Program-made: the position numbers and the translations under genes
Notes under the pieces: generated by a model
What the model was told of the DNA's origin: nothing
Databases searched by the model: none
What the model saw: the letters and a program-made list of their open reading frames with translations, nothing else
Part shown: piece by piece, positions 1 through 34,637 of the stretch
Position numbering within the stretch: the first letter of the stretch is position 1
Layout: each line of letters begins with the position of its first letter
Origin: Nemertoderma westbladi
Lineage: Eukaryota > Animalia > Xenacoelomorpha
Direction of reading: 5' to 3'
Length of the DNA stretch: 34,637 nucleotides
Assembly: GCA_032718475.1 (NCBI GenBank)
Contig: JAUCBJ010003510.1
Coordinates: 1 to 34,637, forward strand

Positions 1-1569
1 CTGCATCTGCCCGAGCAGGAGATCCATCCCCCGTCGTCTCTCGTCCACCCATTCGACCGCCGAAGCGGGAGTCGCCAACGTTGTAGCGGGCGGACGAGGG
101 ACAACGGGCGACAAATCTGGAATATTTCGCTCGGAGTCCAGGGTATGCACTGTCTCATGGACTGTTCTGCTGGGCACAGGTAGCTTAGTGCTGTGCAAAG
201 GGAATTGAGAAGTAGGTTCAGGGAGTACAGGTGTCTCTATTACCGAAGGGGTGATTTCAAGAACAGGCCTAATTATTTCAGGCTCATCTACTATAGTAGG
301 GAGTCTTTCTATTGTAATTATTTGGTCTGTGGGCTCTGTACTACCTAAGTTGGTGTTATTTAGTTGCCTTCTAACAGCTGGAGGCAAATCAGGCAATTTC
401 TGACGGTGGAATGTTCTTTTACGTCTGCTTAGGCGGGATCGATTTCCTCCGCCTTCAGCGTCGGTGGTATCGCCTTCCTCAGATGATGTATACCCCTGTC
501 TCTTGGGAGTAGATCGACTCATCATCTGCATATTGCTCGCTGTTAACTGTTTATTGAAGTTGTCTTGCTTCTCTTGAAGAATTTCCAACTCTAGTTGGGT
601 TGCCTCTTCAGATGCCCTCCGTTCTGCTTCTACCACTGCCTCTGCTATTGCCAGTGCCGCTTTTCTTTCGGCTTCTGCCGCTGCCACTGCTGCTGCCACT
701 GCCGTTGTCTTTCTATCTTCTATACGTTTTTTCTTTACTTGTTCTTCTTGTTCTCTAGCGATGCGGAGTTGTTCATCGAATTTAGCTTGGTTCGCCGCTA
801 ACCTATCCACATCAATCGCATCTAACACGAGTTTGGCTCCTTCGCTATTAGGGCTAAGTCCCTCTAGCCTTCTCCTCAACTCTTCATCTCCCAAAAAACG
901 CTGATAGTCTGACAGATAGATATCAATGGCATCCTTCTTATGCGGTTTCTCTGCCGTCGCTTCACTTTCCACTTGGGAAAAAGTAGCGTCCGTCGATTCT
1001 CCATGGGTTGAGCGCTCCTCCAACTGAGCTTTCCACCGAGCTGCTCCTTGAACCTGGCGACTCACCCGTTGAAACCAAGTTTTTACGGCAACTTGCAACG
1101 ACGTGTCTTGTTTTCTTTTAGAAGCCTCCTCAAAGGCGGATAAGATTAGCCTAATCCGCAAAACTCTTTCTCTAACTTGATAAAGCAGCGATCCCTGCTC
1201 TTGAGGTCCTTGAGGTTGTTGAAAAAGTTGCTTTTCTACTCGCTCCATAGAGCTGAAGAATCCCTGTGCGTATCCGGCTGCGGACCTCTTCCACACAGCT
1301 GGATCGATGGTTTCCTTGGCTACTCCCATCCGGTGTATGTCTTCCCAGGCAGCTTCTGATAAATCAAACGGGAGTCCGGGTCCGGGGAAGTTCCATTGCG
1401 ACTCGACAATAGACTTCAGTTCTTCACTCGTGTATCCCGCGTAGCTATCTCTAGTTGACCGTTGACTTCTCGCCCAATCGATCTGGTGTTCTTCCACCGC
1501 GATCAATAACCCAGCGAGCACGGCTGCAGGAAGGATGAGAAGGGGATCCGTATAAACCGCATCCGTCAT
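1..1569 (-). CDS. Long uninterrupted ORF (>=523 aa, runs off the window edge) with an Ala/Glu/Lys-rich coiled-coil-like segment and a Pro-rich segment; possibly a retroelement gag/ORF1-like protein
   Basis: Manual translation from the ATG at 1569 (MTDAVYTDPLLILPAAVL...EQEEQVKKKRIEDRKTTAVAAAVAAAEAERKAALA...VEWVDERRRGMDLLLGQMQ) has no stop down to base 1. GC is much higher than in the flanking 1890-5500. The frame stays open upstream to about 1719. The product call is inference only. Confidence 0.7.
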   Translation of the reverse strand, partial: MTDAVYTDPLLILPAAVLAGLLIAVEEHQIDWARSQRSTRDSYAGYTSEELKSIVESQWNFPGPGLPFDLSEAAWEDIHRMGVAKETIDPAVWKRSAAGYAQGFFSSMERVEKQLFQQPQGPQEQGSLLYQVRERVLRIRLILSAFEEASKRKQDTSLQVAVKTWFQRVSRQVQGAARWKAQLEERSTHGESTDATFSQVESEATAEKPHKKDAIDIYLSDYQRFLGDEELRRRLEGLSPNSEGAKLVLDAIDVDRLAANQAKFDEQLRIAREQEEQVKKKRIEDRKTTAVAAAVAAAEAERKAALAIAEAVVEAERRASEEATQLELEILQEKQDNFNKQLTASNMQMMSRSTPKRQGYTSSEEGDTTDAEGGGNRSRLSRRKRTFHRQKLPDLPPAVRRQLNNTNLGSTEPTDQIITIERLPTIVDEPEIIRPVLEITPSVIETPVLPEPTSQFPLHSTKLPVPSRTVHETVHTLDSERNIPDLSPVVPRPPATTLATPASAVEWVDERRRGMDLLLGQMQ

Positions 1570-1649
1570 CTCTGCTCCGCGCTCGGGTGTCAGCTCTACA
1601 GTATCCTCACTACTGGAGCTGCTGGGCTGCTGAGGAATAGAGTTCTTGA

Positions 1650-1886
1650 CTAGCGGGTTGTTGCTGTTCCGCTGCCTTGTTGGTCCCGCTTGACCTGAGC
1701 TCGGGTGCCTATGATAGACCTACGATGTTGGACCAGCCTAGGTTCTGTTATTACTACTGGAGGGATGACCTTCCTCACAGTGGGAGGTGAACTGGATTTA
1801 CGACCAGACGGTTGTACGTCTCTATCTGAGTCGCAGATAGTTACATCTAATATACTGTCTGACAGGTTCTGCTTAGTATCAGACAT
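1650..1886 (-). CDS. 78-aa upstream ORF overlapping the open frame of the long ORF; possibly its frameshifted N-terminus
   Basis: ATG 1886 lies at the AT-rich to GC-rich transition. The ORF overlaps the long frame over about 1650-1719, and a -1 shift would fuse the two. Confidence 0.35.
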   Translation of the reverse strand: MSDTKQNLSDSILDVTICDSDRDVQPSGRKSSSPPTVRKVIPPVVITEPRLVQHRRSIIGTRAQVKRDQQGSGTATTR

Positions 1887-5514: not shown

Positions 5515-5944
5515 AACATACCCACCGAACTCATACAACATACCCACCGAACTCATACAACATACCCACCGAACTCATACAACATACCCACCGAACTCAT
5601 ACAACATACCCTCCGAACTCATACAACATACTCACCGAACTCATACAACATACCCACCGAACTCATACAACATACTCACCGAACTCATACAACATACCCA
5701 CCGAACTCATACAACATACTCACCGAACTCATACAACATACCCACCGAACTCATACAACATACCCACCGAACTCATACAACATACACACCGAACTCATAC
5801 AACATACCCACCGAACTCATACAACATACCCACCGAACTCATACAACATACCCACCGAACTCATACAACATACCCACCGAACTCATACAACATACTCACC
5901 GAACTCATACAACATACCCACCGAACTCATACAACATACACACC
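5515..5944. repeat. 22-bp minisatellite (AACATACCCACCGAACTCATAC), about 19 copies
   Basis: Directly visible tandem array with single-base variants. Confidence 0.97.
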
Positions 5945-6037
5945 TACCGGGAAATCCTATACTCGATCTCACCTATCAATCATTGATGAGCGATTTAAAC
6001 TTATTATCAAGTTACCAAATCCCGGTTAATTTATAGC

Positions 6038-7443
6038 AATGTTACATAAAGGTTTACGGTGTAACAATGTTACATAAAGGTTTACGGTGTAACAATGTTA
6101 CATAAAGGTTTACGGTGTAACAATGTTACATAAAGGTTTACGGTGTAACAATGTTACATAAAGGTTTACGGTGTAACAATGTTACATAAAAGTTTACGGT
6201 GTAACAATGTTACATAAAGGTTTACGGTGTAACAATGTTACATAAAGGTTTACGGTGTAACAATGTTACATAAAGGTTTACGGTGTAACAATGTTACATA
6301 AAGGTTTACGGTGTAACAATGTTACATAAAAGTTTACGGTGTAACAATGTTACATAAAGGTTTACGGTGTAACAATGTTACATAAAGGTTTACGGTGTAA
6401 CAATGTTACATAAAGGTTTACGGTGTAACAATGTTACATAAAGGTTTACGGTGTAACATTGTTACATAAAGGTTACGGTGTAACAATGTTACATAAAGGT
6501 TTACGGTGTAACAATGTTACATAAAAGTTTAGGGTGTAACAATGTTACATAAAGGTTTACGGTGTAACAATGTTACATAAAGGTTTACGTTGTAACAATG
6601 TTACATAAAGGTTTACGGTGTAACAATGTTACATAAAGGTTTACGGTGTAACATTGTTACATAAAGGTTACGGTGTAACAATGTTACATAAAGGTTTACG
6701 GTGTAACATTGTTACATAAAGGTTTACGGTGTAACAATGTTACATAAAGGTTTACGGTGTAACAATGTTACATATAGGTTTACGGTGTAACATTGTTACA
6801 TAAAGGTTTACGGTGTAACAATGTGACATAAAGGTTTACGGTGTAACAATGTTACATAAAGGTTTGCGGTGTAACAATGTTACATAAAGGTTTACGGTGT
6901 AACAATGTTACATAAAGATTACGGTGTAACAATGTTACAGAAAGGTTTACGGTGTAACAATGTTACATAAAGGTTACGGTGTAACAATGTTACATAAAGG
7001 TTACGGTGTAACAATGTTACATAAAGGTTTACGGTGTAACAATGTTACATAAAGGTTTACGGTGTAACAATGTTACATAAAGGTTTACGGTGTAACAATG
7101 TTACATAAAGGTTTACGGTGTAACAATGTTACATAAAGGTTTACGGTGTAACAATGTTACATAAAAGTTTACGGTGTAACAATGTTACATAAAGGTTTAC
7201 GGTGTAACAATGTTACATAAAGGGTTACGGTGTAACAATGTTACATAAAGGTTTGCGGTGTAACAATGTTACATAAAGGTTTACGGTGTAACAATGTTAC
7301 ATAAAGATTACGGTGTAACAATGTTACAGAAAGGTTTACGGTGTAACAATGTTACATAAAGGTTACGGTGTAACAATGTTACATAAAGGTTTACGGTGTA
7401 ACAATGTTACATAAAGGTTTACGGTGTAACAATGTTACATAAA
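6038..7443. repeat. 28-bp satellite (GTAACAATGTTACATAAAGGTTTACGGT), about 50 copies
   Basis: Directly visible tandem array. Each unit contains the palindrome TGTAACA-A-TGTTACA. Confidence 0.97.
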
Positions 7444-7636
7444 TTTAATTTAATTTAATTGATATTCGTACATATGAATAAACGATAGACATAGTACACG
7501 GTACGTAGACATATTATTAGTAAAGTAGCACAATATTAATGACGTAGGCCTATGTAATGAATAACTGACAGAACACGCAGTAAATGACACGGCATCGAAC
7601 AAAATAATTATAGGCAATAATATAAAGAATATTTAA

Positions 7637-8818
7637 CTAACATGTAGTAATATAATTAAGGATATCAGTAATCTCATCAACATTAAAACCAGGTATATCA
7701 ATATTGCTACAACGACAATTAATTAATTCCCTACACAATTCTAATTTCCATCTATCAGCTACATCAAAAGGAACGTAGTTCAACTTATTAACGTGCGTAA
7801 CATTGATCGAGTTAATGAGAGGTATTTTACACAGATTTGCGATAGAACGTAAATTGCACCCACTTCGCGAACGACAATCATATAAAAATAATTTTGCTAA
7901 ATAACGAATGCTTGATTTTTCAGACTGCACTAAACTGGTACAAAATCTTATAAAACGTGAATATAACATAATACTGGGGTGTTTAAACTGCATTACATTT
8001 TCTACAATATATCTATGTGATGTAAAAGGCAATCTAAAAATAATCCTAATATTAATATTCCATGAACTGTATATACGAGTACACGATGCAGAAAAAAGAT
8101 CCCATAAATTACTACCGTAGAAGGATGTGCAATAAATACGCTGAATATTACTCAAAACATACAGATCAGAAAAATAGAATTCTTGTCGAAGTACATTGAG
8201 CTTTCCTATAAATTTTCCCCGTTTTCGTATAATATCAGACTCCATTGTGTTCTGGAAATCTAACATGTTTCCTAGATGCAACGCCTCCCTGACCCAAGGA
8301 AGTGGTCTCCCGTTCAGCATTACTGACGCTGTGGGTTTAAACCACACTCTCCCAAAAGGAATGCATTTGGATTTATCCGGATTCGGGTTTGTACTAAACA
8401 CGAGATGGTTTTCGGTTGCGAACTCCTCGCATAACTTGACCATAAACCGTAGTCCCACTATGGAAGGGCATAAAAGGAGAAGATCATCTGCGTAGCCGAA
8501 AATACCAAAATAAAAAGAACCAATATAACAGCCAACTTTAGATGACCTCAGTTTTGATATTAATTTATCCAATATAATACAGAACAGAATCGGAGATGCC
8601 ACTGAACCTTGACGAACTCCGTTCGTTAACGTAAATGACTCGGAATGGAAGCTGTTCCAGCGGACGCAACATGTTTGATTACTATAGATCCATAGCAGGG
8701 TTCGTAAGAAAAAAGGAGAAAACCCCTTCTTAATAAGTTCCAGAAATAGCTTGCACCATTCAACCATAACGAAGGCTTTCGATAGATCGAGAAGACATCC
8801 AAATACAGGAGTTGCGTT
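7637..8818 (-). pseudogene. C-terminal half of LINE ORF2 (RT catalytic core with YADD, to the stop codon)
   Basis: The frame of ORF 7637..8767 extends upstream to 8818 as NATPVFGCLLDLSKAFVMVEW. The conserved AFD reads AFV here. Confidence 0.9.
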
Positions 8819-9054
8819 TACACCTTTAATTACAGTTGCAACAGCTCATCTCCAATTTATTTAATTAATATCACCTGGCAGCAATACCGAGCTGAATATT
8901 TATTTATTTGTACTTCCCTCCTGTTTCACTCTAGCATACTTGAGGCCGTTAGGTCCGCTGTTAGAGATAGAATATTTGCAACTTAAGACTGCCCGTTCAA
9001 TAGAAGTGGATTAGGTGGGACTGCGAGTGTCAGGGGCTAGTGGCTGAGCTGGTT

Positions 9055-9100
9055 AGCGCTACTGATGAGGCCTGTTAGGCCGAAACGTGCGTATAGCGCT
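9055..9100 (+). ncRNA. Minimal type I hammerhead ribozyme, copy 1 (predicted cleavage after GUA at 9093)
   Basis: Stem I AGCGCUA/UAGCGCU; core CUGAUGA; stem II GGCCU-GUU-AGGCC; GAAA; short stem III AC-GUGC-GU; H17=A. Confidence 0.93.
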
Positions 9101-9394
9101 GGTTCAACCCCCGGTGACGCGCTCCCATTTTTTCCACTTCTGAACAAACCCATAATATTACACCTTTAATTACAGTTGCAACAGCTCATCTCCAATTTAT
9201 TTAATTAATATCACCTGGCAGCAATACCGAGCTGAATATTTATTTATTTGTACTTCCCTCCTGTTTCACTCTAGCATAATTGAGGCCGTTAGGTCCGCTG
9301 TTAGAGATAGAATATTTGCAACTTAAGACTGCCCGTTCAATAGAAGTGGATTAGGTGGGACTGCGAGTGTCAGGGGCTAGTGGCTGAGCTGGTT

Positions 9395-9440
9395 AGCGCT
9401 ACTGATGAGGCCTGTTAGGCCGAAACGTGCGTATAGCGCT
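9395..9440 (+). ncRNA. Minimal type I hammerhead ribozyme, copy 2 (predicted cleavage after 9433)
   Basis: Identical to copy 1. Confidence 0.93.
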
Positions 9441-9735
9441 GGTTCAACCCCCGGTGACGCGCTCCCATTTTTTCCACTTCTGAACAAACCCATAATATTA
9501 CACCTTTAATTACAGTTGCAACAGCTCATCTCCAATTTATTTAATTAATATCACCTGGCAGCAATACTCGAGCTGAATATTTATTTATTTGTACTTCCCT
9601 CCTGTTTCACTCTAGCATACTTGAGGCCGTTAGGTCCGCTGTTAGAGATAGAATATTTGCAACTTAAGACTGCCCGTTCAATAGAAGTGGATTAGGTGGG
9701 ACTGCGAGTGTCAGGGGCTAGTGGCTGAGCTGGTT

Positions 9736-9781
9736 AGCGCTACTGATGAGGCCTGTTAGGCCGAAACGTGCGTATAGCGCT
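9736..9781 (+). ncRNA. Minimal type I hammerhead ribozyme, copy 3 (predicted cleavage after 9774)
   Basis: Identical to copy 1. Confidence 0.93.
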
Positions 9782-9843
9782 GGTTCAACCCCCGGTGACG
9801 CGCTCCCATTTTTTCCACTTCTGAACAAACCCATAATATTACA

Positions 9844-11050
9844 CCTAGAATAGAAACCGAGAACCTCTGTAGCCGCCCAGGTACATTGGGACGTACTGGA
9901 ACCACTTTGGAACCCGAATTGCAACTCATCCAAATGTAAGCACTCAGCCTGCGAGATCAGCATGACCCACTCAAACAACTTAATCAGAAGGGAGGATAAG
10001 GCAATAGCCCTGTAATTACTGGAAAGGGAATCGTCACCTAATTTATCTTTTATCAAAGGAATAATGACACACGTCAGTAAGAACTGTGGAACAAAGCCGT
10101 GAATGAGAAAACTGTTGAACAAATCACTTAAATGTGAACATAATTCTGGAGGACCATTGATCAGGCAATCAGAATCAAAATCAAAAGTTACGTCTGTTTT
10201 AGAGCTTTTTAGCCTATGTAGACCTTCACTGACCAAATCCGGAGTGATATGCGGGAAATCAGCTGAATCACATCCTTCGAGTTTATCGGTAATCTGCGAT
10301 CTAACGAACTCTAAATCGGAATCATACGGTTGATTATATAGATCCGAATATATACTGGCGAATCGGTCGGCTATCGATTGTGGGTCTGTACAACCATCAA
10401 TGGTCGAAGTCACAGTGTTCGGTGTGGATCTAAGTTTCTTTATTTCTTTAAATATATCACTATTATTCCTTAAACACGCCTGGAGGAGTTTATCTCGACG
10501 CACATTATCTACTGAACGTTTGAGCCGTCTGACGGCATACTTATACTGCGCGCGAGACACCCGTCGCATGTGAAAAAGCTGACTATTTTGTGAAGCATTT
10601 GGACACCCCGCCGAGACCCACAAGGAATGCCATAGGATAGCTTCATCTCTAAATGGTTTAACTCGCTCCGACCAACCGGGAAGTTTAGGGCGATTATTAG
10701 CAGCACGGGGCTCACCATTATAATTATTATTTAAACTACTACAGCTGATATCAATGCATTCAAGAATATCTAAAACATATTTTTCAATAAACAGTCTATG
10801 AGTAAGGTCCGCACAAAAAATATTACCACATGTTATACAACCTGACTCAACCTCAATGTCATCCAATTTATTATGTAGATTGTTTACAAAGTCATGTTGC
10901 TGTTCAATAGAAGCTCGCTTAAATTTAATTTTACCATTACCAGTAGCATCACCTGAGCTATAATTAACACGTGGTAAATCTACACCACTAACTTTCAACT
11001 TCAAAAATATTGGGTCATGAAAAGATAAATTAGCACCAGAATGTATGTTC
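9844..11050 (-). pseudogene. N-terminal half of LINE ORF2 (end of APE endonuclease, linker, start of RT)
   Basis: ORF 9718..11085 is LINE-like up to ...WAATEVLGFYSR. Its last ~40 codons are read-through into the inserted repeat. Confidence 0.88.
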
Positions 11051-11218
11051 GCGCTTTTGAAGACCTTTAGCAGTATTACACGCATAATTAGCGTTGTTAT
11101 GTTGTTTTATATTAAAGCAATGATGATAATTGTAATTGTAAAGCAATGAGTGTAATTGGTGCATGTTATTTATCAACGTGTCTACAATGATTACTCATAA
11201 TGCGTGGAACAAAACCAA

Positions 11219-12398
11219 TGTGGGGCGAGCCACGAAGTGAGTGAGCCTTAGCGTAGTGGTACCATTAATCAACCTGTCGTTCTGTCGTTCTGTCGTTCTG
11301 TCGTTCTGTCGTGTTCAATTTTAAACGTTAATAACTCGGCCAATCTTTGATGAAATCTATCCAAACTTGGTACACATGTTGTTTGGCAAAAGTTTAGAAA
11401 TTTTCCAAGTAGAATTTCAGTGTGGCCTTCGAGAAGCTAAGATAATAGCAGTTAATTAGTTAATTAAGTTATTACGGTAAAAACACCATTTTCAACCTGC
11501 CTTTTAAAGGAAATTAATTGTTTTACACGTTCGTGGGGCCTTCGCGCAGCACGAGGCCCAGTTATGAGATACAAATTAAAATTGAGCGACTGTATCACAA
11601 AATCAGGTTTTGAGAAATTTACCCACACCACCAATCAATCAAAGAAAGGGGGACAGTACGTGTTCACCCCTTTTAATCCCCCCCCCCCCCCCCACCCTTC
11701 CCAACCACCAATACATAACCGCGACATCTACCACCCACGGAAGGGTAGCACGAACTTATTTCCAATCGCACGTTCAATATGCAAAGCCAGGTGGTTTATA
11801 GGAATATAATAAACGCAGTACTCGTATTCATTATAAGCCTCGTTGCGTTCGTCCTGTTTTGTATTTAAATATATTTCTTAAACGCAGGCTAGGACGTTCT
11901 TTATAATAATAATAACTAGGGATGCGATCAATATGTGAAGCCAGGTGGTTTATATAATAATTTAGTCAACGCAGTACTCGTCTTCATTATATGCCTCGTT
12001 GCGCTCGTCGCTTGTCCTGTTTTGTTATAAAATATTTTTCCTAAACGCAGACTGACGATCTTTATACAGTTATAACTATGCGAAGTTTCGAAACTGTGCG
12101 AGTAACTGTTGATACATCTATGTGGATATGTGTGATATGTGGAGATGTGTGATACAACGCCAACGCATCTTATGCCGATGTAGTAATATGGGTATTGAAA
12201 TAATATTAAATTAATGTACACTCTTAAAGCTGCAGCGAAAAAATGTAGCTAATTTCCTAGGTTACATATAAAATAATAATATTATTTTTAAGAACATTAA
12301 TTTTACTACTTTGCAAAAATTCAATTAAAAAATAACCAGACATATACATTGTGGAATAAACTATTTCAGAAGCCTACACAACAGCCATGCCATGGATA
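11219..12398. mobile_element. Rearranged Helentron/DINE-like (HINE-type) copy: 309-bp 5' end in + orientation fused to the 875-bp 3' end in - orientation
   Basis: 11219-11527 is the reverse complement of 14189-14497. 11524-12398 is a direct repeat of 12912-13786. The junction shares TACA. Confidence 0.7.
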
Positions 12399-12911
12399 CT
12401 ATGAAATTTCCCCGCTCAAGATAGCTAGTAAATTCCACCTGCCTTGCCAATAGTATAGGACCCCTTAATTTTGTTACTACCAGTCAACCAGTTCCGGTAC
12501 CCAAATAACTATGTATGTCATTCAACTCACTTTGAACACCAGTACTAGTAGTCAAGTAGACAGTACCGACCACCGTTCAAATTGGGTATGACTGCAGTTT
12601 TTTTTGCTGAAAGTGTTAACTTGTATAAACCATTTGAAATTATGTTATATTTCACATAGTCCGCATTGAGCAATTTTTTCTAGAACACTATTTATCTTAA
12701 CGACAGATTTTTTACATAGCAACAATAATGAATGAACACACAAGGGTATATTTATCTATTTAGACACTGGTCAATCATAAATAAGGAGAAACCAAGCTCG
12801 AGAAAATAAAAATGTAAGGAATAAGGATTATGTTTGCAGTTATGAGTTACAAATTTTGTAACATTGCAGTGTTATGGCAAACACTGTTACTGGTAGTGAA
12901 CTTGTAATACA

Positions 12912-14497
12912 TACACGTTCGTGGGGCCTTCGCGCAGCACGAGGCCCAGTTATGAGATACAAATTAAAATTGAGCGACTGTATCACAAAATCAGGTTTTG
13001 AGAAATTTACCCACACCACCAATCAATCAAAGAAAGAAAGGGGGACAGTACGTGTTCACCCCTTTTAATCCCCCCCCCCCCACCCTTCCCAACCACCAAT
13101 ACATAACCGCGACATCTACCACCCACGGAAGGGTAGCACGAACTTATTTCCAATCGCACGTTCAATATGCAAAGCCAGGTGGTTTATAGGAATATAATAA
13201 ACGCAGTACTCGTATTCATTATAAGCCTCGTTGCGTTCGTCCTGTTTTGTATTTAAATATATTTCTTAAACGCAGGCTAGGACGTTCTTTATAATAATAA
13301 TAACTAGGGATGCGATCAATATGTGAAGCCAGGTGGTTTATATAATAATTTAGTCAACGCAGTACTCGTCTTCATTATATGCCTCGTTGCGCTCGTCGCT
13401 TGTCCTGTTTTGTTATAAAATATTTTTCCTAAACGCAGACTGACGATCTTTATACAGTTATAACTATGCGAAGTTTCGAAACTGTGCGAGTAACTGTTGA
13501 TACATCTATGTGGATATGTGTGATATGTGGAGATGTGTGATACAACGCCAACGCATCTTATGCCGATGTAGTAATATGGGTATTGAAATAATATTAAATC
13601 AATGTACACTCTTAAAGCTGCAGCGAAAAAATGTAGCTAATTTCCTAGGTTACATATAAAATAATAATATTATTTTTAAGAACATTAATTTTACTACTTT
13701 GCAAAAATTCAATTAAAAAATAACCAGACATATACATTGTGGAATAAACTATTTCAGAAGCCTACACAACAGCCATGCCATGGATAGTATTTATGTTATG
13801 ATATCTGTCATTCACCTGAGATAGCAATACAACATTTATAGTGAATTTAAAGAATGCTGTCTGGGCTGGAATAGCAATACTGGTTGTCTATTACTATTCC
13901 TCTCTAGTTAGTCTTAGCAACAACTCCCAGCCAGCAGCAGAGACTTGACCAATAATCATTCCCAGCAACTGGGAATGACACACACATCCCATCTATGTAC
14001 CAGCATGTTGGCCAATAAATGAGCAGTATTTAATGAGAATACATTTTTTTTGCCGTTTTAATTACTTTAGATCAATTAAAGACACAATTATTAAAGCAAA
14101 TCACTTGAACTAATTAAAAACTATAATAGAATGGCGTATGTGGATTACATCTGTATAATTTTTAATTATAATTATTTAAATCTTATACTGTAAAACAATT
14201 AATTTCCTTTAAAAGGCAGGTTGAAAATGGTGTTTTTACCGTAATAACTTAATTAACTAATTAACTGCTATTATCTTAGCTTCTCGAAGGCCACACGGAA
14301 ATTCTACTTGGAAAATTTCTAAACTTTTGCCAAACAACATGTGTACCAAGTTTGGATAGATTTCATCAAAGATTGGCCGAGTTATTAACGTTTAAAATTG
14401 AACACGACAGAACGACAGAACGACAGAACGACAGAACGACAGGTTGATTAATGGTACCACTACGCTAAGGCTCACTCACTTCGTGGCTCGCCCCACA
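12912..14497 (-). mobile_element. Non-autonomous Helentron/DINE-like (HINE-type) element, apparently full length
   Basis: Short subterminal inverted motif GTGGGGC/GCCCCAC, (CTGTCGTT)n microsatellite near the 5' end, GC-rich hairpin GGGCCTTCG...CGAGGCCC at the 3' end, no TSD and no real ORF. Confidence 0.65.
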
Positions 14498-15589: not shown

Positions 15590-16360
15590 GGATCATAAAC
15601 TAATATAATTACAACATTTTTGATGGGAATCACAAGACAACAGCAATGTGTTGCTACAGTCCAACCAATAATGCATCAGAGCCAGAACAAGCAGTCAAGG
15701 GCTATAAGATCTGAATGGAGTCATTGATACCTACAAACACCACATTCGAAAAGAGTAAGGATGGACATTTAACTACGAGGCATACAGTAGTCAGCTCGTT
15801 CAACCTAATTTGTTCGGACCAGACCAGACTGCAGAGCTCAGATTCAGTTTGAGAGTCAGTAAACTCAGGACAAGCAAGCAAATCAACTATAACTGGGAGA
15901 AACGCAGAACTGACAATGCAGTAAAGGAAGCTCACACCGTAGAAGTTCAAAATCGCAAGAGAGAAGATGTTAAGATACTCCTACTCCAAAGTAAGAACTG
16001 AACAACCAACAGCCGAAAACATCAACAAGGTTGAGAAAGCTAAACAACTAGGCACCTGCCGAACTCCAAAGAAGTATTAAAAGCATGTCCAATTATAAAG
16101 CGAGTAGTGGATTAGGTGAAATCCCTGAAGAGGTATGGAAAACCGGAGTGCTAAAAAGACCATTTTCGGATGATTGCAACCAGATGTTAAAAGGGGACAA
16201 TCCACCACCAATTTGGACTAAAGGTCAACTAAAGCCTCTCCCAAAGGAAGGAGCCCTCGGCATACCAACAAACTATCGTGGGATCTGTCTGCTTGTGGTT
16301 GCTGCCAAAATATACAATAAAATGATTCTATATAGGGTTAGGCCCCACTTAGAGAATGTT
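15590..16360 (+). pseudogene. Decayed, internally deleted RTE-like LINE fragment (APE remnants and RT N-terminus)
   Basis: CYSPTN at about 15653 and EIPEEVWKTG...PLPKEGALGIPTNYRGICLLVVAAKIYNKMILYRVRPHLE in ORF 16085..16414. Frameshifts and deletions lie between these motifs. Confidence 0.8.
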
Positions 16361-17432
16361 GCTCTTTTATGTTGCGTTTTATTCACATTTTTTTTATATA
16401 GGCATATGTTATAAACAAATAAAGTTGAAAAAATATTTCTACCATAACAAAAAAAATCTGCCATATTTTAAAATAAATAAATAAAATCTGAAATATTAAA
16501 AAAAATACAATAATATTGTATAAATGTTGGGTAAAGGCAATATGTTTCAGAACATTTATATGTATCAAAACTTAAAAATAGCTACATAAAAAGTATTATA
16601 AAATGATCAATAATGCTTGATAGGGCCGTGGTGATGGAGACGTTTTAAAATTCTCTTCCAACAACAATTGTAAAGCGAAAATACAAGTATTTTTAAATAT
16701 AAGTATTATACAATATTCTATATATTAAATGGTGGTGTACATAAAGTATATTACCTTTAAAATTGACGTAACAACTTCGATAGAATCGGGTTTCCAAAAT
16801 AGTTAGGTCTTCAAGCTCACCATCTCCCAAATCCAACGGAATCATCAAATTTCCATCAACTTCTTCGTATCGCGGCAATCTTGTTTCGCAAATCAATGGC
16901 AAAAGTCCTTTCTCATATTGCTATCGCTGCATTTTTCTTGCGTTTCCAACTTTTGGATTTTTTGGATCTATCGCCTTACATAAGGCGGTAGATCCAGATA
17001 AGGCAATCTTTCTCAAACCTAAATGTCACTATTAATCACAATATTTTTTAATTATTTTCTCTTTAAGAAAATCTCTCTTTAAGGTTATTTTCATTGCCTA
17101 AATGTAACTTATTACTGCAATGTTTTGAATCATAAAAACATAATATTCTAGAATGTTTAATGTTGTTGCTAACACATTCTCTACATAGATTAACATTTTT
17201 TTGGTAATTTTGTTATGATTTTATCCTCCAAACAAACGGCAATAAAAAAAATTGCTCAACCTTTCCCAAAGTCTTTATAGCGAAAATTTATTGTTATAAT
17301 GTTGAACAACATCATGAGCAAATAAAATTGCAGTCATACGCTGGAGAACGGTTCGTCAGTAAAATGTACCAAGCGTCTACTCGACTATAGTAGGCGTTAG
17401 TGTTAGTTACATTAGTGGCTAGAGCTCCGGGC

Positions 17433-21113: not shown

Positions 21114-21377
21114 ACTTTTAAGAATTTTTATACAACTTTTGCTGACGAAAATGGTGCTTCAATAATGAACCGTAAAACTGTTCAATAAAGTGGGGCCGGC
21201 CAAGTAATTCCATAGAAACAAATCTAATAGAAAATTGAATACAATTTAAAAAAATGGGGATACAATATCTAATAGTACGACGAATATTTACAAAGCAATA
21301 ACTAATAGATTTGTTGTAAAAACAATAATTAAGATAAATAATTAGTTTGAAACCAATTGCACGTATACTACAGTATA

Positions 21378-22010
21378 ATGGATCGAAAAGGGAAGGGAAA
21401 ACAGTTAAAAAGAAAACAAGTTCAATCCAATGATGATTCAGAGAATGAAGATGGTATTAGTGGGGAGCCTAAAACTAAAGTAGAAAGAAAAAGTAGTTTA
21501 ATATTAGCAAAACCCAATAATAATGAAGAATTAAACAATAAAATAATATCATCAGAAGATCTCTCGAGAATACTCGAGTTCGATAAAGATCTGGAATGCT
21601 CGATTTGTCGCGAGGTACTCATTGAGCCGTTACTTCTCAACTGTTCGCATTCTTTCTGCTGTCACTGCGTGGCAGTCTGGTTGAAACAGAAGCCTAATTG
21701 TCCGGCGTGTCGGGAGCCTGTCCACAAAGCCACGAGATCCGCCGCACTCGACATATTAGTGGGGCAAATCGTCGCCCAACAGGACCGAGCCACTATTCGG
21801 GCCAGAGAGACAGTGCAGAAGAGCCGGAATGTAGATAAAGTTGATCTCCCCAAAGTATGCGATAAGTGCGGCCACTTCGTTGTGGAGGTAAAAAACGAGG
21901 AAGAATATGATGATGCAGATGTGAACGAGATGATTGATGCAGCTCTTGAGATTTCGCGGCAGATTGCTTCTCGTATTGCGGACGTTATTCACAGTTACGT
22001 GACGGAATAA
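21378..22010 (+). CDS. C3HC4 RING-finger protein (RNF8-like E3 ubiquitin-ligase domain), 210 aa, intronless, no FHA domain
   Basis: LECSICREVLIEPLLLNCSHSFCCHCVAVWLKQKPNCPACR has all eight Zn ligands, and the following SAALDILVGQIV...RARETVQKSR resembles the post-RING helix of RNF8. First ATG at 21378, basic NLS-like N-terminus, AATAAA overlapping the stop. Confidence 0.85.
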   Translation: MDRKGKGKQLKRKQVQSNDDSENEDGISGEPKTKVERKSSLILAKPNNNEELNNKIISSEDLSRILEFDKDLECSICREVLIEPLLLNCSHSFCCHCVAVWLKQKPNCPACREPVHKATRSAALDILVGQIVAQQDRATIRARETVQKSRNVDKVDLPKVCDKCGHFVVEVKNEEEYDDADVNEMIDAALEISRQIASRIADVIHSYVTE

Positions 22011-23999: not shown

Positions 24000-25900
24000 G
24001 GCAGTGATTTTTTATGTCCTTTTATTTGACTTTTTTTGTCCTTTTTTTTACGAATTATGCATAATGACTTTTGTTGTCCTTTTAATGACTTTTATTGTCC
24101 TTTTAATGACTTTTTATGTATGTATTTCTTCAAACTGTCAGACTGCTGATTTCTGGACTGTCAGACAGTTGATTTCACTATGCCTGTGCCAAAACATTCC
24201 ATGATTCCATGATTTATAGACTATGAGATAGATTTCCATATGCGCCTGTGGTAAAAAGACTCTATATTTAATAGTTTGTGGTTGTTGTCGATAATCGATT
24301 ACCACATGACGTAGCAAAACACTCATTTTATAGCCAAAAACAATTACCAATTGATGGAAAGGAGCAGGTTAAGGCCGAGTTTTCTAACCAAAACAATAAA
24401 CCGTCACTTTACCAAATCAGGGAAAGGAGCAGGTTACAGAGACGGGATTTTCTAACCAAAACAATAAACGATCACTTAACTAATTGAAGGAAAGGAGCAG
24501 GTTACAGAGGCGGGATTTTCTAACCAAAACAATAAACGATCACTTAACTTATTGATGGAAAGGAGCAGGTTACAGAGGCGGGATTTTCTAACCAAAACAA
24601 TAAACAGTCACTTTACCAAATCAGGGAAAGGAGCACGTTACAGAGACGGGATTTTCTAAACAAAACAATAAACGATCACTTAACTAATTGAAGGAAAGGA
24701 GCAGGTTACAGAGGAGGGATTTTCTAACCAAAACAATAAACGATCACTTAACTTATTGAGGGAAAGGAGCAGGTTACAGAGGCGGGATTTGCTAACCAAA
24801 ACAATAAACGATCATTTAACTAATTGAGGGAAAGGGACAGGTTACAGAGGCGGAATTTTCTAACCAAAACAATAAACGATCACTTAACTAATTGAGGGAA
24901 AGGAGCAGGTTACAGAGGCGGGATTTTCTAACCAAAACAATAAACGATCATTTAACTAATTGAGGGAAAGGGGCAGGTTACAGAGGCGGGCCTTTCTAAC
25001 CAAAACAAAAAACGGTCACTTTACCAATTCAGGGAAAGGAGCAGGTTACAGAGGCGGGATTTTCTAACCAAAACAATAAACGATCATTTAACTAATTGAG
25101 GGAAAGGGGCAGGTTACAGAGGCGGGATTTTCTAACCAAAACAATAAACGATCATTTAACTAATTGAGGGAAAGGAGCAGGTTACAGAGACGGGATTTTC
25201 TAACCAAAACAATAAACGATAACATTACCAATTGAGAGAAAGGAGCAGGTTACAGAGGCGGGATTTTCTAACCAAAACAATAAACGATAACATTACCAAT
25301 TGAGGGAAAGGAGCAGGTTACAGAGGCGGGATTTTCTAACCAAAACAATAAACGATCACTTAACTAATTGAGGGAAAGGAGCAGGTTAAGGCCGGATTTT
25401 CTAACCAAAACAATAAACAGTCACGTTACCAAATCAGGGAAAGGAGCAGGTTATCCGTAATACTACTCAGACAGTAGTCATGATCCATTATTGACTATAA
25501 AACTAATATAGTAATAGGCCTAAAGTATGTGAAAGGTATATCCACATTTTCCACAATCCTGCAATCCAGTTTGGCCTATCAATTATTTAAAATTTATTAG
25601 CACAACCGGTAGGCCTACCATTACCGTATTTAAATGGTAGGCTACACAGTAGGCCTATAGCAGTACCGGTGCCGGTACCGGTACTAAAATACAGAAATAC
25701 CTGCTTTATACCTACATCTGTACATACAATACAGCAAAATAGTGCTATATATACTAATACCGGTACTGATAGCCTGAGAGAACAGCAGTCAGGCAGTAGA
25801 GAAACCGGTAGCATGGAACCTAACATTAGACTTTTGGAGGACAAAAAAAATAAAAAAAAGGACAAAAAAAGGATTTAAACGGACAATAAAAATTATTGCG
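24000..25900. mobile_element. Non-autonomous Mutator/MULE-like element with about 50-bp imperfect TIRs and a 9-bp TSD, carrying a satellite
   Basis: TSD TTTCGAATA (23991-23999) and TGTCGAATA (25901-25909). TIRs at 24000-24050 and 25850-25900 contain TGTCCTTTT motifs. Confidence 0.7.
24331..25453. repeat. 68-bp tandem repeat, about 16 copies
   Basis: Unit GGAAAGGAGCAGGTTACAGAGGCGGGATTTTCTAACCAAAACAATAAACGATCACTTAACTAATTGAG, starting at 24421, 24489, 24557 and onward. Confidence 0.96.
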
Positions 25901-25995
25901 TGTCGAATATAAGTGCAATTTATTAACAGGTACACTACGGTCAGACGGTGGCTGAAAGCGGCCAAACAATATTAATTAAGCGTTTTTTTTTTTAA

Positions 25996-26064
25996 TTTCA
26001 ACCCGGGTTGAAAATAATATCAACCCGGGTTGAAACTAATATCAACCCGGGTTGGAAATAATAT
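25996..26064. repeat. 22-bp tandem repeat with palindrome TCAACCCGGGTTGA, 3 copies
   Basis: Directly visible. Reverse orientation of the array at 29652-29813. Confidence 0.9.
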
Positions 26065-26065
26065 T

Positions 26066-26158
26066 GTCTGTCTCCGACAACCCCTCCCCCGGCTCCGACC
26101 ATACCATCGCCACGTCTGTCTCCGACAACCCCTCCCCCGGCTCCGACCATACCATCGC
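26066..26158. repeat. Direct duplication, period 48 bp
   Basis: GTCTGTCTCCGACAACCCCTCCCCCGGCTCCGACCATACCATCGC occurs twice. Confidence 0.9.
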
Positions 26159-26265
26159 GAACATTTTTAGAGCATTTGATTCGCCCAGTGGTTTTTTGAT
26201 GACCATGCTCTCAATTTTACTTTGGTTGTAAATGTCTCCTTGACCTTGACCAATTTTAAACTTCA

Positions 26266-26703
26266 CTATAACAACTTTAGTCGTTGTAGTTGGTCGGCCT
26301 CGGCCTGTCGGCCCTGGCCCAGGCGTGAGTTACGACGACTGGAACTCAGACCAGCAATGATGGGCCTATGCATGCGGGAAGACGTGCTGGTCGATTCGAA
26401 ATCGTCGTCGTCATGAATGTCACCGGCACCAGCAGTTACCGGTACAAATAAGCCTCCCGCTCCCTGTAGCGGGGCGCCATCCGCTTCTGCGAATGGATTA
26501 CCGGTAACAGCTGCTTCGGGTTCTCGTTCACGGCTTTCACGCCTATTATTCATCTCGATCTCGTTTACACGGTCGTTGATGGCTCTCCTTAAATCGGATA
26601 GTTCTTCCCTTCGCTGCCTAGATAAGGGTCCTGATAATATCATTTCATTTAATTCAAAATAAAGAAGGCCTACCTGCCTATGCCCTACCGTACTGCAGTG
26701 CAA
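26266..26703 (-). CDS. GC-rich ORF or exon of unknown function (helical N-terminal part, acidic/Ser-rich C-terminal part)
   Basis: Local GC island with a protein-like translation (RREELSDLRRAINDRVNEIE). No recognisable domain. Confidence 0.35.
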   Translation of the reverse strand: MHCSTVGHRQVGLLYFELNEMILSGPLSRQRREELSDLRRAINDRVNEIEMNNRRESREREPEAAVTGNPFAEADGAPLQGAGGLFVPVTAGAGDIHDDDDFESTSTSSRMHRPIIAGLSSSRRNSRLGQGRQAEADQLQRLKLL

Positions 26704-28319
26704 ATCAGCAGGTACCGGATAAGGATAAGGACAGAAGGAAAGGATAACCTATTACTACAGTAATTATAACCTATGCCTGTATGCTGCTATGCCAGTACAG
26801 CAGTCTGGCACTGGCAGTACTGCAGTATATCTGTACTCTGTATGTGGAATTTCGGACATTGCATCTATAGGGGCTGTTGCGCTGTCAGTCAGAGAGGTAA
26901 CAGCCCATGGGGTAAGGATTTACCCATGGGGCGCTTACTATCAGATAGTCTGATACCAACTGTCAGACAGTCTTTTTCAACTATCAGATAGATGATCGCC
27001 CAGTTACAAGTTGCCCGATAGTTGTATTTTTTAAACCCCGAGTGTTGTTGACGGAGTCTGTTACTTCCGAAATCGTGGTGCCGGTGCCGGAATTCTGGCT
27101 TTGATTAAAAACACTGAACTGCTGAACGATGGCGGAATCTACGAAACCCGGCCGGATTCCTAATCCGAGGAGGCGACGGAGTCAATTACACGTAAACAAT
27201 GAAACAATCGCGATGGACAATGGAGTCTATTCAATGTATCGAGAACGATACGATGGCGACGGAGTCTATTACAGTATTAAACACGCAACCAAAGCGATCA
27301 GACGATGGCGAAGTAATCTACAAAACAGAGAACGACAGGAAGGCGATGGAGTTTATTAAACCCAGTAAGATGGTGCATAGCAGCATAGCGAAGCGATCGA
27401 GACGGATAACGGAGTCTATTACAGTATTAAACCTGGAACGAAGACGGTGGAATCTATAGGCCTAAACCTGGAACAATGCGAACAAGGCTACTGTAAAGTT
27501 AGACTAGACTGGTTTGTGAGATTAACTTGCCAATACTAAACTCAATACAAGTTGCTTTCTTCGAATTCCTTCTTCTCGAAGTCTTGTCAATGTATAAGAT
27601 TGCTAAAGACTAAAGAGCTAACTTTAGGAAAATCTGCCTTATATTTTTAGAATTATTATAATTAATTTTGTTATGTATATAATGAATTGTATCTTTTGAC
27701 AGACTACTTGATGCGCGACCGTGATAATAAAATTAAATGGTGCCGAAATATTTTCACTTAACTGCAGGTAGGGTGGGGGGGGGGGGGGGGGGGCGCAATC
27801 AATATTCTTCCCTCTCCAGGTGAAAATCGACGCAAATAACAGCTTGTTTACTACTAAAATAAAACTGCATCCTGTTCTATAGGAAAAAACATTATAGGGG
27901 GGGAAACTTTAGCAAGTTGTGTTTATTTTAGCCGATAGACAAAGATTACATGTTTGCCAAGTTTGGTATAATTTAGTCAAAGATTGAATGAGTTACGATT
28001 TTAAATTATCAGTGGAGGGTGAAGGCGGTGGGCCAGGATTCAGTTATGTTTGAATAAAGAATAGTGATTAAACCAAGGGATACGCGATATATGACACTGC
28101 TGTATAAGTTCATTGAATGACTGTTGATTTCGAAACATTTAATTCAAAACTATATAAATGTTTATATAATGTTGGATTTTTTTTTTGTAATAATTAACAA
28201 ATGAATTATATTTCATTAATTTATTTTTTTATCTAATCACATTATTAAATAACGAAGCACAGAAATAATACCAAGATTGAATATTGAATTGAGGGTACAG
28301 TACCGAATTGAATATTTGA

Positions 28320-28524
28320 ATGGGGGAATCTTTTAGGCTCGTTAAGCCAAGGAATGCCTGTTCACCACCATGGGTGATCTTCCACAGTAAACCCTTCTTC
28401 CACTCTGTTTCCCAAGTTGCCTTGGTTCCCAATCGACCACTGAAGGATGAAAGCCGGGGTTGGGCTAGGCTGCAGCATTTAAAACACTGTGCCCAAACAG
28501 TACTGCCCCATCTAGGGATCGAAC
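28320..28524 (-). mobile_element. 5'-truncated copy of the tRNA-SINE with a 13-bp TSD
   Basis: Truncated within the B box. ATTGAATATTTGA is duplicated at 28307-28319 and 28525-28537. Confidence 0.9.
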
Positions 28525-28641
28525 ATTGAATATTTGAGATTGCATAAGATAAGAGCATTGAATATCTTCGGCCGTCATCCCGTTGGTGACTCTATTCTGC
28601 CATTGGCAACCATTTCGACAGTTTCGATTGGTTTCGGCTCT

Positions 28642-28971
28642 TCAGTGCCCGAATAGACCGATGATCGGCGTGGTTGCTGTCCCCATGACTGAGGCTGCAA
28701 TACCAACCAAAATTGCAATTTCCACTAGGCGCTGGAGCAGAAACTGGTGTGACCGCGGTTCGTGGGTGGCTCTGTGGAGACGATCCCCGATCTCCCGGAG
28801 GAAGGTGGATGTCTCTGGACCAGGGCGGCCAAAGGTCTCAAAGGCCATGGGGTGAAAGAAATGGCCCGGTCCATTAGGTCGCGATACTTAGAGTTTTAAT
28901 GCGCTCCGCCCCCTCAGCTGAGTGCCCCCCAGCAATGATGGTTTGTTGAAGGTGGCTGGGGGACAGTGGAT
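28642..28971 (-). pseudogene. 3' fragment of a CRE-like (restriction-like endonuclease) non-LTR retrotransposon
   Basis: PLSPSHL...KYRDL...PMAFETFGRPGPETSTFLREIGDRL...FLLQRL...AASVMGT, with frameshifts. Confidence 0.78.
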
Positions 28972-29651
28972 CTAGTAATAATTAACGCAAACTGGCAAAG
29001 ATATGATTAGGTAGGCCTACGTGATATTAGTTTCTCAAACCAAACCTATCCATCCATTGACCGTCCAAATATATCCAATTTCTCAATCCATACTAATCAG
29101 TCAGTATGCAGTATGTAATAATGTACACTGTAATGCTATACCGGTAATATCAATGTCCAACCAAACAATGCGTTGAATGTTATCGGACCAGCCGCCAAGA
29201 AATGTTAGGCTAACGGCACCTCGCTCTGTCGCATCAGTTTTTGTAGTGGTCTAGTTCCAGGCTACCAGAATCCGTTAGGCCTAGTGCATGATATAGAATC
29301 AGCACATCCTGACATCTGTGCAACTCCTGAACTCACGCGAGCATTTTACATATGGTCTTCTACCACGAAACCGTGTATTATTTACAGATGTAGGCTAAAT
29401 TTCGGGTCATGTACCGTGCACAGTACTGGTGGGCCTACACAGCTACTGCTATTTTGCCTAATACAGGTCCCAGAGGTAAATCCTTACCCCACGGGCTGTT
29501 ACCTCTCTGACTGACAGCGCAACAGCCCTCTCTCCATTGCATTGCTGCATTGGCTGAGTGATACCTACATATATATATTATATTTATATTTCCCGCCACA
29601 CCTCATCAACAAAAGAGTTCATAGAACGAATTGTCATTGGTCACATGCAAG

Positions 29652-29813
29652 TATTTTCAACCCGGGTTGATATTATTTTCAACCCGGGTTGATATTATTT
29701 TCAACCCGGGTTGATATTATTTTCAACCCGGGTTGATATTATTTTCAACCCGGGTTGATATTATTTTCAACCCGGGTTGATATTATTTTCAACCCGGGTT
29801 GATATTATTTTCA
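29652..29813. repeat. 22-bp tandem repeat (TATTATTTTCAACCCGGGTTGA), 7 copies
   Basis: Directly visible perfect array. Confidence 0.96.
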
Positions 29814-32171: not shown

Positions 32172-33365
32172 CACAATGTCCCAGAATATAGTGTCGTAAT
32201 TCAGTGACACGCCCCCCCCCTAATTTATCTACAAATCTTAATGAGATTGCATGAAATTTGAAACAGAGATAGTTTAACCTCCCGACCACTGACTGGCTGA
32301 GCCGGAATTTTTATTTTTTATTTCAATCTTTAGCTACAAGCGTTTAAAAAAAGTGTCTCCAGCGATATTACACCAGTTACACCGCAGTTATTCTTCTATC
32401 TTATAGCTGTTTGTTGGTACCAATGGAAAGTTGGCGATGCAAGGATTCAAAATATGTAACTCAATTTGAATTTCGTTGAAAAATAGCTGAGTTATGAGCG
32501 TTCAAATGTTGCATGGTTTTGCATCTGCGCAAGGCTATTTTATTCTATTTAATAAATGCATCATATTCTAGTTTATTACATCCAATCAACCACCTATAAT
32601 ATAATTTGATCGGTGGGTAAATATTATAAAAGTAATACTTTCAGTGTTCATAAATCACAATAAAATGTATATTAAATATATATAGTCCAGGTGCCGGAAG
32701 AGGTGCTATCTAGCTGCCTAGGATATCGAATAGGCCCTCTGACGGAGATTCAACTGTACCGAGGACTGCGGCCGAGTTCCTAACGAGTATTGCGACCGCG
32801 ATGCGCTGAAGCAGGAAACGATGGGAGCGAGGATCCTGTGTCGATGAATGTATCCTCCTACCGACCTCCTTCAGGAAAACTTCCGTTGCCGGACCGCGGC
32901 GACCAAACGTTTCAAAGGCGACTGGCGTGAACAGGAAACCCTGGTCAATAAGCTCCTGATATTTTCTGATCTTGAGGGTTTCCTGGTTTTCAGCAGCACG
33001 TCCGCCCCGTATGTATGCTTGTTGCCAGGTGGCTTTGGGCGAGTGGGTGTATTCTGTATTATATTCTGGAATATTTTGTTTATCCAAATACGTAGCTGGG
33101 CAACAATGCATTACATCTTTAATCATACTATTATGTAGCTATTCATACATTTAAAAAATGTTCCAGAATATGGTTTATTTATTAAATATAATAAAATAGC
33201 CTCGCGCCGGTGCAAAACCATGCAACATTTGAACGCTCATATCTCAGCTATTTTTCAACCAAATTCAAATTGTGTTACATATTTGGAATCTTTGCATGAC
33301 CAGCTTTCCATTGGTACCAACAGTGCGTGTCACTGAATTACGACACTATATTCTGGGATATGGTG
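32172..33365. mobile_element. Non-autonomous CMC-type (EnSpm/Chapaev/Transib-like termini) DNA transposon with 41-bp TIRs and a 3-bp ATA TSD
   Basis: ATA|CACAATGTCCCAGAATATAGTGTCGTAATTCAGTGACACGC...GCGTGTCACTGAATTACGACACTATATTCTGGGATATGGTG|ATA. A second inner inverted pair lies at about 32412-32556 and 33180-33322. Confidence 0.82.
32710..33050 (-). pseudogene. Second CRE-like endonuclease C-terminal fragment, nested in the CMC-type element
   Basis: GGRAAENQETLKIRKYQEL...PVAFETFGRRGPATEVFLKEVGRRI...DPRSHRFLLQRIAVAILVRNSAAVLGT. The first ~25 codons of the listed ORF come from the host element. Confidence 0.82.
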
Positions 33366-34316: not shown

Positions 34317-34637
34317 GGTTTAAATGAATCCGTTGATCAACGGGATTCAATACAACCTACTGTAGGTTTCAAAGACGTCTCAGGGTTTAAATGAATCCGT
34401 TGATCAACGGGATTCAATACAACCTACTGTAGGTTTCAAAGACGTCTCTGGGTTTAAATGAATCCGTTGATCAACGGGATTCAATACAACCTACTGTAGG
34501 TTTCAAAGACGTCTCTGGGTTTAAATGAATCCCTTGATCAACGGGATTCAATACAACCTACTGTAGGTTTCAAAGACGTCTCTGGGTTTAAATGAATCCG
34601 TTGATCAACGGGATTCAATACAACCTACTGTAGGTTT
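34317..34637. repeat. 67-bp tandem repeat rich in palindromes, at least 4.8 copies, runs off the window
   Basis: Units start at 34317, 34384, 34451 and onward. Each contains GAATCCGTTGATCAACGGGATTC, AACCTACTGTAGGTT and AGACGTCT. Confidence 0.96.

Follow-up and report, generated by a model that had tools for sequence, protein, structure and literature searches.

Organization of the Locus

The window, meaning the whole stretch of 34,637 nt of DNA that was analysed, contains a tandem array of three retrozyme units inserted in the open reading frame (ORF) of a LINE. The LINE ORF is located on the minus strand and the array is antisense to it (Table 1). In agreement with the preliminary description of this DNA, the array was found within the reverse transcriptase (RT) region ahead of the DLSKAF motif, 10 codons before its D.

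Table 1. Features of the retrozyme array and of the LINE copy that carries it.
Feature	Position	Strand	Basis
Probable LINE 3′ UTR; short pentanucleotide AT repeats form its end, next to a 28-bp satellite	7444..7636	-	by eye
LINE ORF, C-terminal half (RVT_1, YADD present)	7637..8818	-	Pfam, homologues
Junction homology T (1 nt), RNA 5′ side	8818..8818	+	
Retrozyme tandem array, three units, junction homologies included	8818..9846	+	TRF and unit comparison
1025-nt insert as defined by the inferred empty site (three turns and a further 4 nt, TACA)	8819..9843	+	homologue spacing
Type I hammerhead 1 (CTGATGA core at 9062; GTA triplet ending at 9093, predicted cut after it)	9045..9106	+	core letters and stem pairs
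Predicted 28-nt open AC-rich loop, monomer positions 53–80 after the cut	9146..9173, repeated 9486–9513	+	folding
Type I hammerhead 2 (CTGATGA core at 9402; GTA triplet ending at 9433, predicted cut after it)	9385..9446	+	core letters and stem pairs
Type I hammerhead 3 (CTGATGA core at 9743; GTA triplet ending at 9774, predicted cut after it)	9726..9787	+	core letters and stem pairs
Junction homology CCT (3 nt) common to target and unit, on the RNA 3′ side, where priming likely took place	9844..9846	+	
LINE ORF, N-terminal half	9844..11090	-	homology to relatives of 1014–1032 aa

TRF analysis gave a period of 340, 3.0 copies and 99% matches for positions 8818–9846. The sequence TTACACCT occurs at positions 8818, 9158, 9498 and 9839, giving head-to-tail units of 340, 340 and 341 nt. 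The units show two differences in all, namely one substitution in unit 2 and one extra T in unit 3, each private to one unit. The GC content of the unit is 44.7%, which is below the 50% limit for metazoan non-LTR retrozymes. The array contains no stop-free frame of 120 codons except for the read-through from the LINE halves, and no LTR-like flanks were found around it. No further copies of the 340-nt unit were revealed in the window; TTACACCT also occurs at 30628 and 30820, and these two sites were rejected as additional copies since their number is at chance level (1.4 expected in the window). In addition, a Pfam scan of the 76 window ORFs revealed no Penelope ORF, GIY-YIG or second RT.

Each unit carries a hammerhead ribozyme motif, which was assigned to type I on the basis of the core letters (CUGAUGA/GAAA) and of the named stem pairs, Watson–Crick in 13 of 13 cases. 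Stem I consists of 7 bp, a 4-nt bulge and 6 bp, stem II of 4–5 bp, and stem III of 2 bp with a tetraloop. The motif is identical across all three units and its cleavage triplets are antisense to the LINE ORF. The search against Rfam gave no match at the gathering threshold; below it, weak matches to Hammerhead_3, a type III model, were obtained with an E-value of 0.19. Scanning with an exact hammerhead pattern resulted in 0 matches both for a narrow pattern in viral and metagenome contigs and for a wider pattern in prokaryote genomes and metagenome contigs. According to these sequence features, the 340-nt repeat is an animal retrozyme of an already known class; it is itself new and appears unrelated to anything in the collections searched.

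Self-cleavage and circle formation are predicted for the retrozyme unit. When the active hammerhead fold was forced, its predicted energy was 2.6 kcal/mol above the MFE of the circle, and this small difference makes an uncut trimer less likely as a template. The monomer did not fold better than its shuffles, with a z of −1.2 in the linear form and −1.3 in the circular form.

The LINE Target

The RT domain of the LINE was detected with PF00078 (E-value of 7.9e-14), and LINE-1 ORF2p and R2 RT were matched in the PDB with an E-value of about 1e-8. The LINE copy has KAFV where KAFD was found in 163 of 168 homologues. No near-identical copy of this LINE was found in protein searches, in which the best full-length identity was 50% and the best local identity was about 61%.

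All 13 full-length relatives (1014–1032 aa) align to the window only from their residue 217–245. In the six relatives scanned, the N-terminal 240–260 residues gave exo/endo/phosphatase matches, mostly weak, and a profile HMM of the relatives' first 240 residues showed no significant match to the six frames of the window. Judging by these alignments, the LINE copy lacks about 220–240 N-terminal codons, that is, nearly the entire APE endonuclease. Truncation of the 5′ end at LINE insertion is the usual cause of a missing N-terminal end. Because nearly all of the endonuclease is missing, the LINE was probably already dead or non-autonomous when the retrozyme arrived, and was most likely a bystander target, provided that the events took place in the order we infer. 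For the same reason, the suggestion in the preliminary description that one mobile RNA had disabled another is doubtful. The insertion provides no evidence of one mobile RNA targeting another and represents a single event in a probably dead LINE copy.

Both LINE halves are stop-free; such open frames limit neutral decay to about 3% (P 0.03 at 3%), and the LINE and the retrozyme are therefore both young. Dating of the LINE by changed conserved residues was rejected: 5 of 92 near-invariant columns differ, and three of these five residues are not one base change away from the consensus and may be family traits.

Empty Site and Junctions

As had been anticipated, the LINE frame of about 800 codons is restored by either of two removals. 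Removing positions 8819–9843 (1025 nt) results in one open frame of 815 residues, and removing 8819–9840 (1022 nt) in one open frame of 816 residues. If exactly three units are taken out (1021 nt, with one TTACACCT kept), the frame is shifted and 38 stops appear. To gauge the empty site, the QFGF motif and the D of DxSKAF were used as landmarks and the distance between them was determined in 240 homologues, 58 of which did not span the region and 13 of which had no anchor. The spacing fits the 1025-nt removal in 168 of the 169 measurable homologues, and the remaining one has an extra residue. The residues flanking the break, R and N, are the modal ones (109 of 168 and 63 of 168 homologues, respectively). 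In tblastn searches with full-length relatives, positions 9844 and 8818 were joined by consecutive residues (e.g., 634/635 of P0244, 619/620 of P0252 and 627/628 of P0255). From these relatives, which are distant (at most about 61% identical over local stretches), we infer the empty site GCGTT^CCTAG. Relative to this site, the insertion would have been accompanied by neither duplication nor deletion of the target, and the TTACACCT present at both ends of the array would be mostly unit sequence (three turns plus 4 nt).

The repeat TTACACCT was also considered as an 8-bp target duplication and was rejected because of the frameshift and the wrong spacing. It is the sole flanking repeat, and no target duplication longer than 4 bp, an optional trait of metazoan non-LTR retrozymes, was found. 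The GC content of the target is 43% within 15 nt on each side versus 38% for the LINE, and there is no ATT at the break.

A 3-nt match to the target is possible at only 5 of 340 registers, which speaks for some primer pairing. It had been proposed earlier that the 8-nt microhomology at both ends first primed and then resolved the insertion. The 3-nt CCT match at the RNA 3′ end fits the priming part of this model; the 8-nt homology at both ends does not stand, since the empty site deduced from 168 of the 169 measurable homologues lacks TTACA/ACACCT and the three-turn removal shifts the frame. Half of the CCT/ACACCT match on which the model depended was thus recovered: in the inferred empty site CCT is present and ACA is absent.

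End Register and Predicted Open Loop

The first predicted cut lies 276 nt from the start of the array (about 275 nt in the preliminary description) and the array ends 72 nt past the last cut, which confirms that it is permuted relative to the ribozyme-defined monomer. Since a Penelope RT starts internally and its copies end there, such a permutation is expected for copying of the Penelope type and is no proof of a circle.

Counted from the ribozyme cut, the array ends correspond to monomer positions 65–72, and both fall inside a predicted open loop. At 28 nt, this loop (positions 53–80) exceeds every other unpaired run predicted for the circle, and the 20-nt window 53–72 ranks first of 340 for unpairing at 15, 25 and 37 °C. 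In AC-richness, the 20-nt window that ends at 69 belongs to the top 3 of 340 and the one that ends at 72 to the top 9. The loop is predicted to be equally open in the linear trimer (0.85), and another CCT, at position 164, is predicted to be just as unpaired (0.97). Note that the loop was spotted only once the ends were known and that it covers 8% of the unit, which is the chance level for hitting it. A random stop would fall 0–8 nt past the start register in 2.6% of cases and within 8 nt on either side in 5%.

Two further resemblances were considered and rejected. The ATT at the 5′ end was not accepted as support for endonuclease resolution, as 24% of registers are at an ATT. A short stretch of the stem foot here resembles the loop region of PAc, the Penelope/Poseidon element of Anolis carolinensis, as drawn in a supplementary figure; by rough arithmetic, this resemblance is within chance.

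Proposed Mechanism of Insertion

Rolling-circle copying is a published hypothesis for the retrozyme class (PMC7229834). The proposal in that paper is that target-primed reverse transcription on a circle yields tandem cDNA, with Penelope elements as likely helpers, and the same model of circular RNA and target-primed multimeric cDNA made by Penelope-like enzymes is given in PMC7761336, PMC4209133 and 10.64898/2026.07.22.740005. Frangieh et al. (PMC11167929) reported that the anole Poseidon RT starts within its own RNA at an AC-rich stem-loop (ORF 111–118). With the hammerhead cut at +26, this start lies, by subtraction, 85–92 nt after the cut, and genomic copies end at the starts. Tails and multicopy non-autonomous insertions have been described in PMC8557442.

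The account that we tentatively prefer, while holding it at less than even confidence, is that a Penelope-type RT started internally in the AC-rich loop and copied an RNA circle from a target primer. The RT would have started inside the predicted open loop of the repeat, with the 3-base match to the target likely helping. The bottom-strand 3′ end AGG may have been paired with CCU at monomer positions 70–72. Elongation would then have proceeded, likely for three laps round the RNA circle, through three hammerhead sites. The far end would have been joined 4–7 nt past the start register, which is the weakest step of the proposal. It could have arisen by capture on a CCT overhang with a 4-nt bulge kept, by cleavage at the loop ATT, or by chance (2.6–5%). 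Capture of the cDNA by a CCT overhang would be a weakened form of the earlier microhomology idea, and five CCT sites would be available for it. Since the circle would have been converted into an RNA:DNA hybrid by the end of the first lap, the loop itself could not stop the third lap.

By analogy, the Penelope account is favoured by the array end being located 69–72 nt after the cut, compared with 85–92 nt for the Poseidon start. Against it, the target is not AT-rich, and there is neither a 30–40-nt tail nor an inverted second arm. Furthermore, it concerns one insertion only, and the 76 window ORFs scanned include no Penelope ORF. According to PMC11167929, the Poseidon enzyme has a preference for ATT in AT-rich DNA, starts independently of homology and used unprocessed RNA.

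Alternative Explanations

Several other courses of events could have produced the same array. A trimeric DNA circle might have been looped out of a larger array, opened once and end-joined into a break in the LINE with no RNA step, which we consider unlikely. The whole-turn length follows directly from such a circle and is explained by it better than by the Penelope reading. The partial end units sum to one monomer within 4 nt, and this is a published signature of eccDNA: Sproul et al. (PMC7403614) described that reintegration of eccDNA leaves truncated first and last repeats that together form one monomer. The homology of 1–3 nt, the lack of a duplication and the target that is not AT-rich are also in line with end joining. 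However, such a circle does not explain why the opening point should fall within the predicted AC-rich loop and about as far from the cut as a Penelope start (about 8% by chance), and 4 nt would have to be gained, not lost. Somewhat less probable is a Penelope-type internal start on an uncleaved linear multimer transcribed from a donor array, in which the fixed end is that of the element and no circle is involved. Poseidon used unprocessed RNA in vitro and its hammerhead mutants left insertion unchanged (PMC11167929), 8 of 9 Xenopus dimers were uncleaved in vitro (10.64898/2026.07.22.740005), and the loop is as open in the linear trimer as in the circle. This reading is opposed by the canonical hammerhead with a two-pair stem III, a kind that cleaves co-transcriptionally in coral and mussel (PMC7229834), and by the in-register 5′ end, which demands that transcription started in the same loop.

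We regard as improbable the insertion of one lap plus a few bases by an RT that stalled at its own start, followed by expansion of the monomer into three units, with the 8-nt terminal repeat seeding slippage or unequal exchange. It would give in-register ends without recourse to chance, and local amplification by unequal crossover was proposed by Li et al. (10.64898/2026.07.22.740005). Yet the locus is very young and would have had to undergo two subsequent duplications, the first of them starting from just 8 nt of repeat, and both differences are private to single units and thus record no stepwise history. A relay is an outside possibility of about the same standing: a Penelope-type RT that began in the open loop of a retrozyme circle would stall a few bases past its own start on each lap and re-prime seamlessly in the open loop of a fresh circle. 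If true, this would account for both ends lying in one loop; the length of an insertion would come to whole turns and a few extra bases, and the units would be copies of different RNA molecules. Such a mechanism is absent from the literature examined. The literal form of the earlier model, in which TTACACCT was present in the target, served for priming and, exactly three turns later, resolved the insertion, is very improbable. An extra-codon LINE variant with an added T at the left junction would yield the sequence, as the 1022-nt removal opens the frame, and an extra residue was seen here in 1 of 169 homologues; but the exact three-turn removal shifts the frame, no extra residue is present in the other 168 homologues, and R and N are the most frequent residues on their respective sides of the break. 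An assembly chimera is hardly credible, since the LINE halves are codon-contiguous across the array and the units differ at two places, which a misjoin would not yield; at worst, the number of units could be in error. Capture by a CCT overhang, the DNA circle, one lap with growth and the relay all account for whole turns, and one locus cannot separate them.

Significance of the Locus

The entry of retrozymes into new sites has been hypothesised (PMC7229834), and its mechanism was described as "to be elucidated" (10.64898/2026.07.22.740005). Here the insertion lies in a conserved ORF, and the target can thus be inferred to the base. The junction is unusually readable: it shows no duplication, homology of 3 + 1 nt and a length of three turns with 4 nt added, and the ends fall in a loop positioned like the Penelope start site. 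Such a junction pattern makes a sharp genome-wide test of Penelope-primed RNA copying versus reinsertion of a DNA circle versus relay. A single locus settles nothing alone. No tabulation of the end registers of animal retrozyme arrays was found in the literature covered, which excluded most subscription journals.

Comparison with Known Systems

Non-LTR retrozymes were defined by Cervera and de la Pena (2020, PMC7229834), who showed circles in coral, mussel and axolotl. Li, Clavereau and Pollet (2026, 10.64898/2026.07.22.740005) linked retrozymes to Penelope pseudo-LTRs and favoured local amplification. As characterized in these two sources, metazoan non-LTR retrozymes share with the array a non-coding tandem unit of 150–450 bp with a type I hammerhead in each, a GC content below 50%, a two-pair stem III with a tetraloop and a circle that is predicted to be self-paired. 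Dimers as well as trimers are found among them, and the array analysed here is a trimer. The differences are that their target duplication, when present, is longer than 4 bp whereas none was found here, and that the interrupted ORF allows the empty site to be inferred to the nucleotide.

The target itself resembles LINEs with APE and RT domains: it contains RVT_1, and its relatives of 1014–1032 aa carry the N-terminal exo/endo/phosphatase domain. Unlike them, the copy in the window is without residues 1 to about 220–240.

With PAc (PMC11167929), the array shares a copy end in an AC-rich loop 3′ of the cut, at 69–72 nt here versus 85–92 nt. According to that source, PAc is coding, its preferred targets are AT-rich with ATT, its start does not depend on homology and its insertions carry a 30–40-nt tail, in contrast to the non-coding unit, the target with 43% GC, the 3-nt match, the 4-nt overlap and the single arm found here. 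The Rsp-like satellite of Drosophila simulans and D. mauritiana (PMC7403614) is similar in that its truncated end units sum to one monomer and its junctions show microhomology. It differs in that its spread was proposed to be DNA-based (eccDNA) and its targets are in the 1.688 satellite; a ribozyme is not mentioned in the accessible text of that report. Lastly, the Penelope-type element Pen2_Av of Adineta vaga, which interrupts a non-LTR element (PMC3846280), likewise has a LINE as its target, an empty site known from a related element, no TSD and a microhomology junction. Pen2_Av is, however, an autonomous partial tandem, and its microhomology is described at the 5′ junction.

Other Repeats and Open Reading Frames

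Next to the LINE, a non-LTR retrotransposon copy on the minus strand, the window contains an element with inverted ends. It starts about 130 nt past the point where the LINE is cut short on its 5' side and is bounded by perfect terminal inverted repeats of 309 nt. Its interior carries a direct duplication of about 880 nt (98.9% identity) with a spacing of 1388 nt. Inspection by eye did not reveal an obvious target duplication. The element has the appearance of a DNA transposon that is young and non-autonomous. Note that a loose hammerhead-like pattern (CTGACGA...GAAA...GTA) occurs twice within it, at 12,052 and 13,440; the stems appeared poor when examined by eye, and both matches are probably due to chance. 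At its 3' end, the LINE is adjoined by the 28-bp satellite.

Features of the window other than the LINE and its retrozyme array
Feature	Position	Strand	Characteristics
Coiled-coil-like ORF	1–1719	-	at least 573 codons, continues past window end
22-bp satellite	5515–5944		19.5 copies
28-bp satellite	6037–7443		50.5 copies
Element with inverted ends	11,219–14,497
Non-LTR-like frame	16,052–16,414	+
RING-finger ORF	21,351–22,010	+	single open frame, 219 codons, C3HC4 RING finger
68-bp tandem array	24,349–25,453		16 copies
Inverted clusters of 22-bp unit	25,993–29,813
Non-LTR-like frame	32,710–33,138	-
67-bp tandem array	34,317–34,637		at least 4.8 copies

The inverted clusters, located about 3.6 kb from each other, are built from a 22-bp unit whose core is palindromic. 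The region also has additional internal inverted arms and is possibly a non-autonomous transposon.

A search against Pfam gave no match for the coiled-coil-like ORF or for either non-LTR-like frame, and the plus-strand frame also had no PDB match. In their motifs (NYRGI; F.P.A.ET.G), these two frames resemble fragments of other non-LTR elements.
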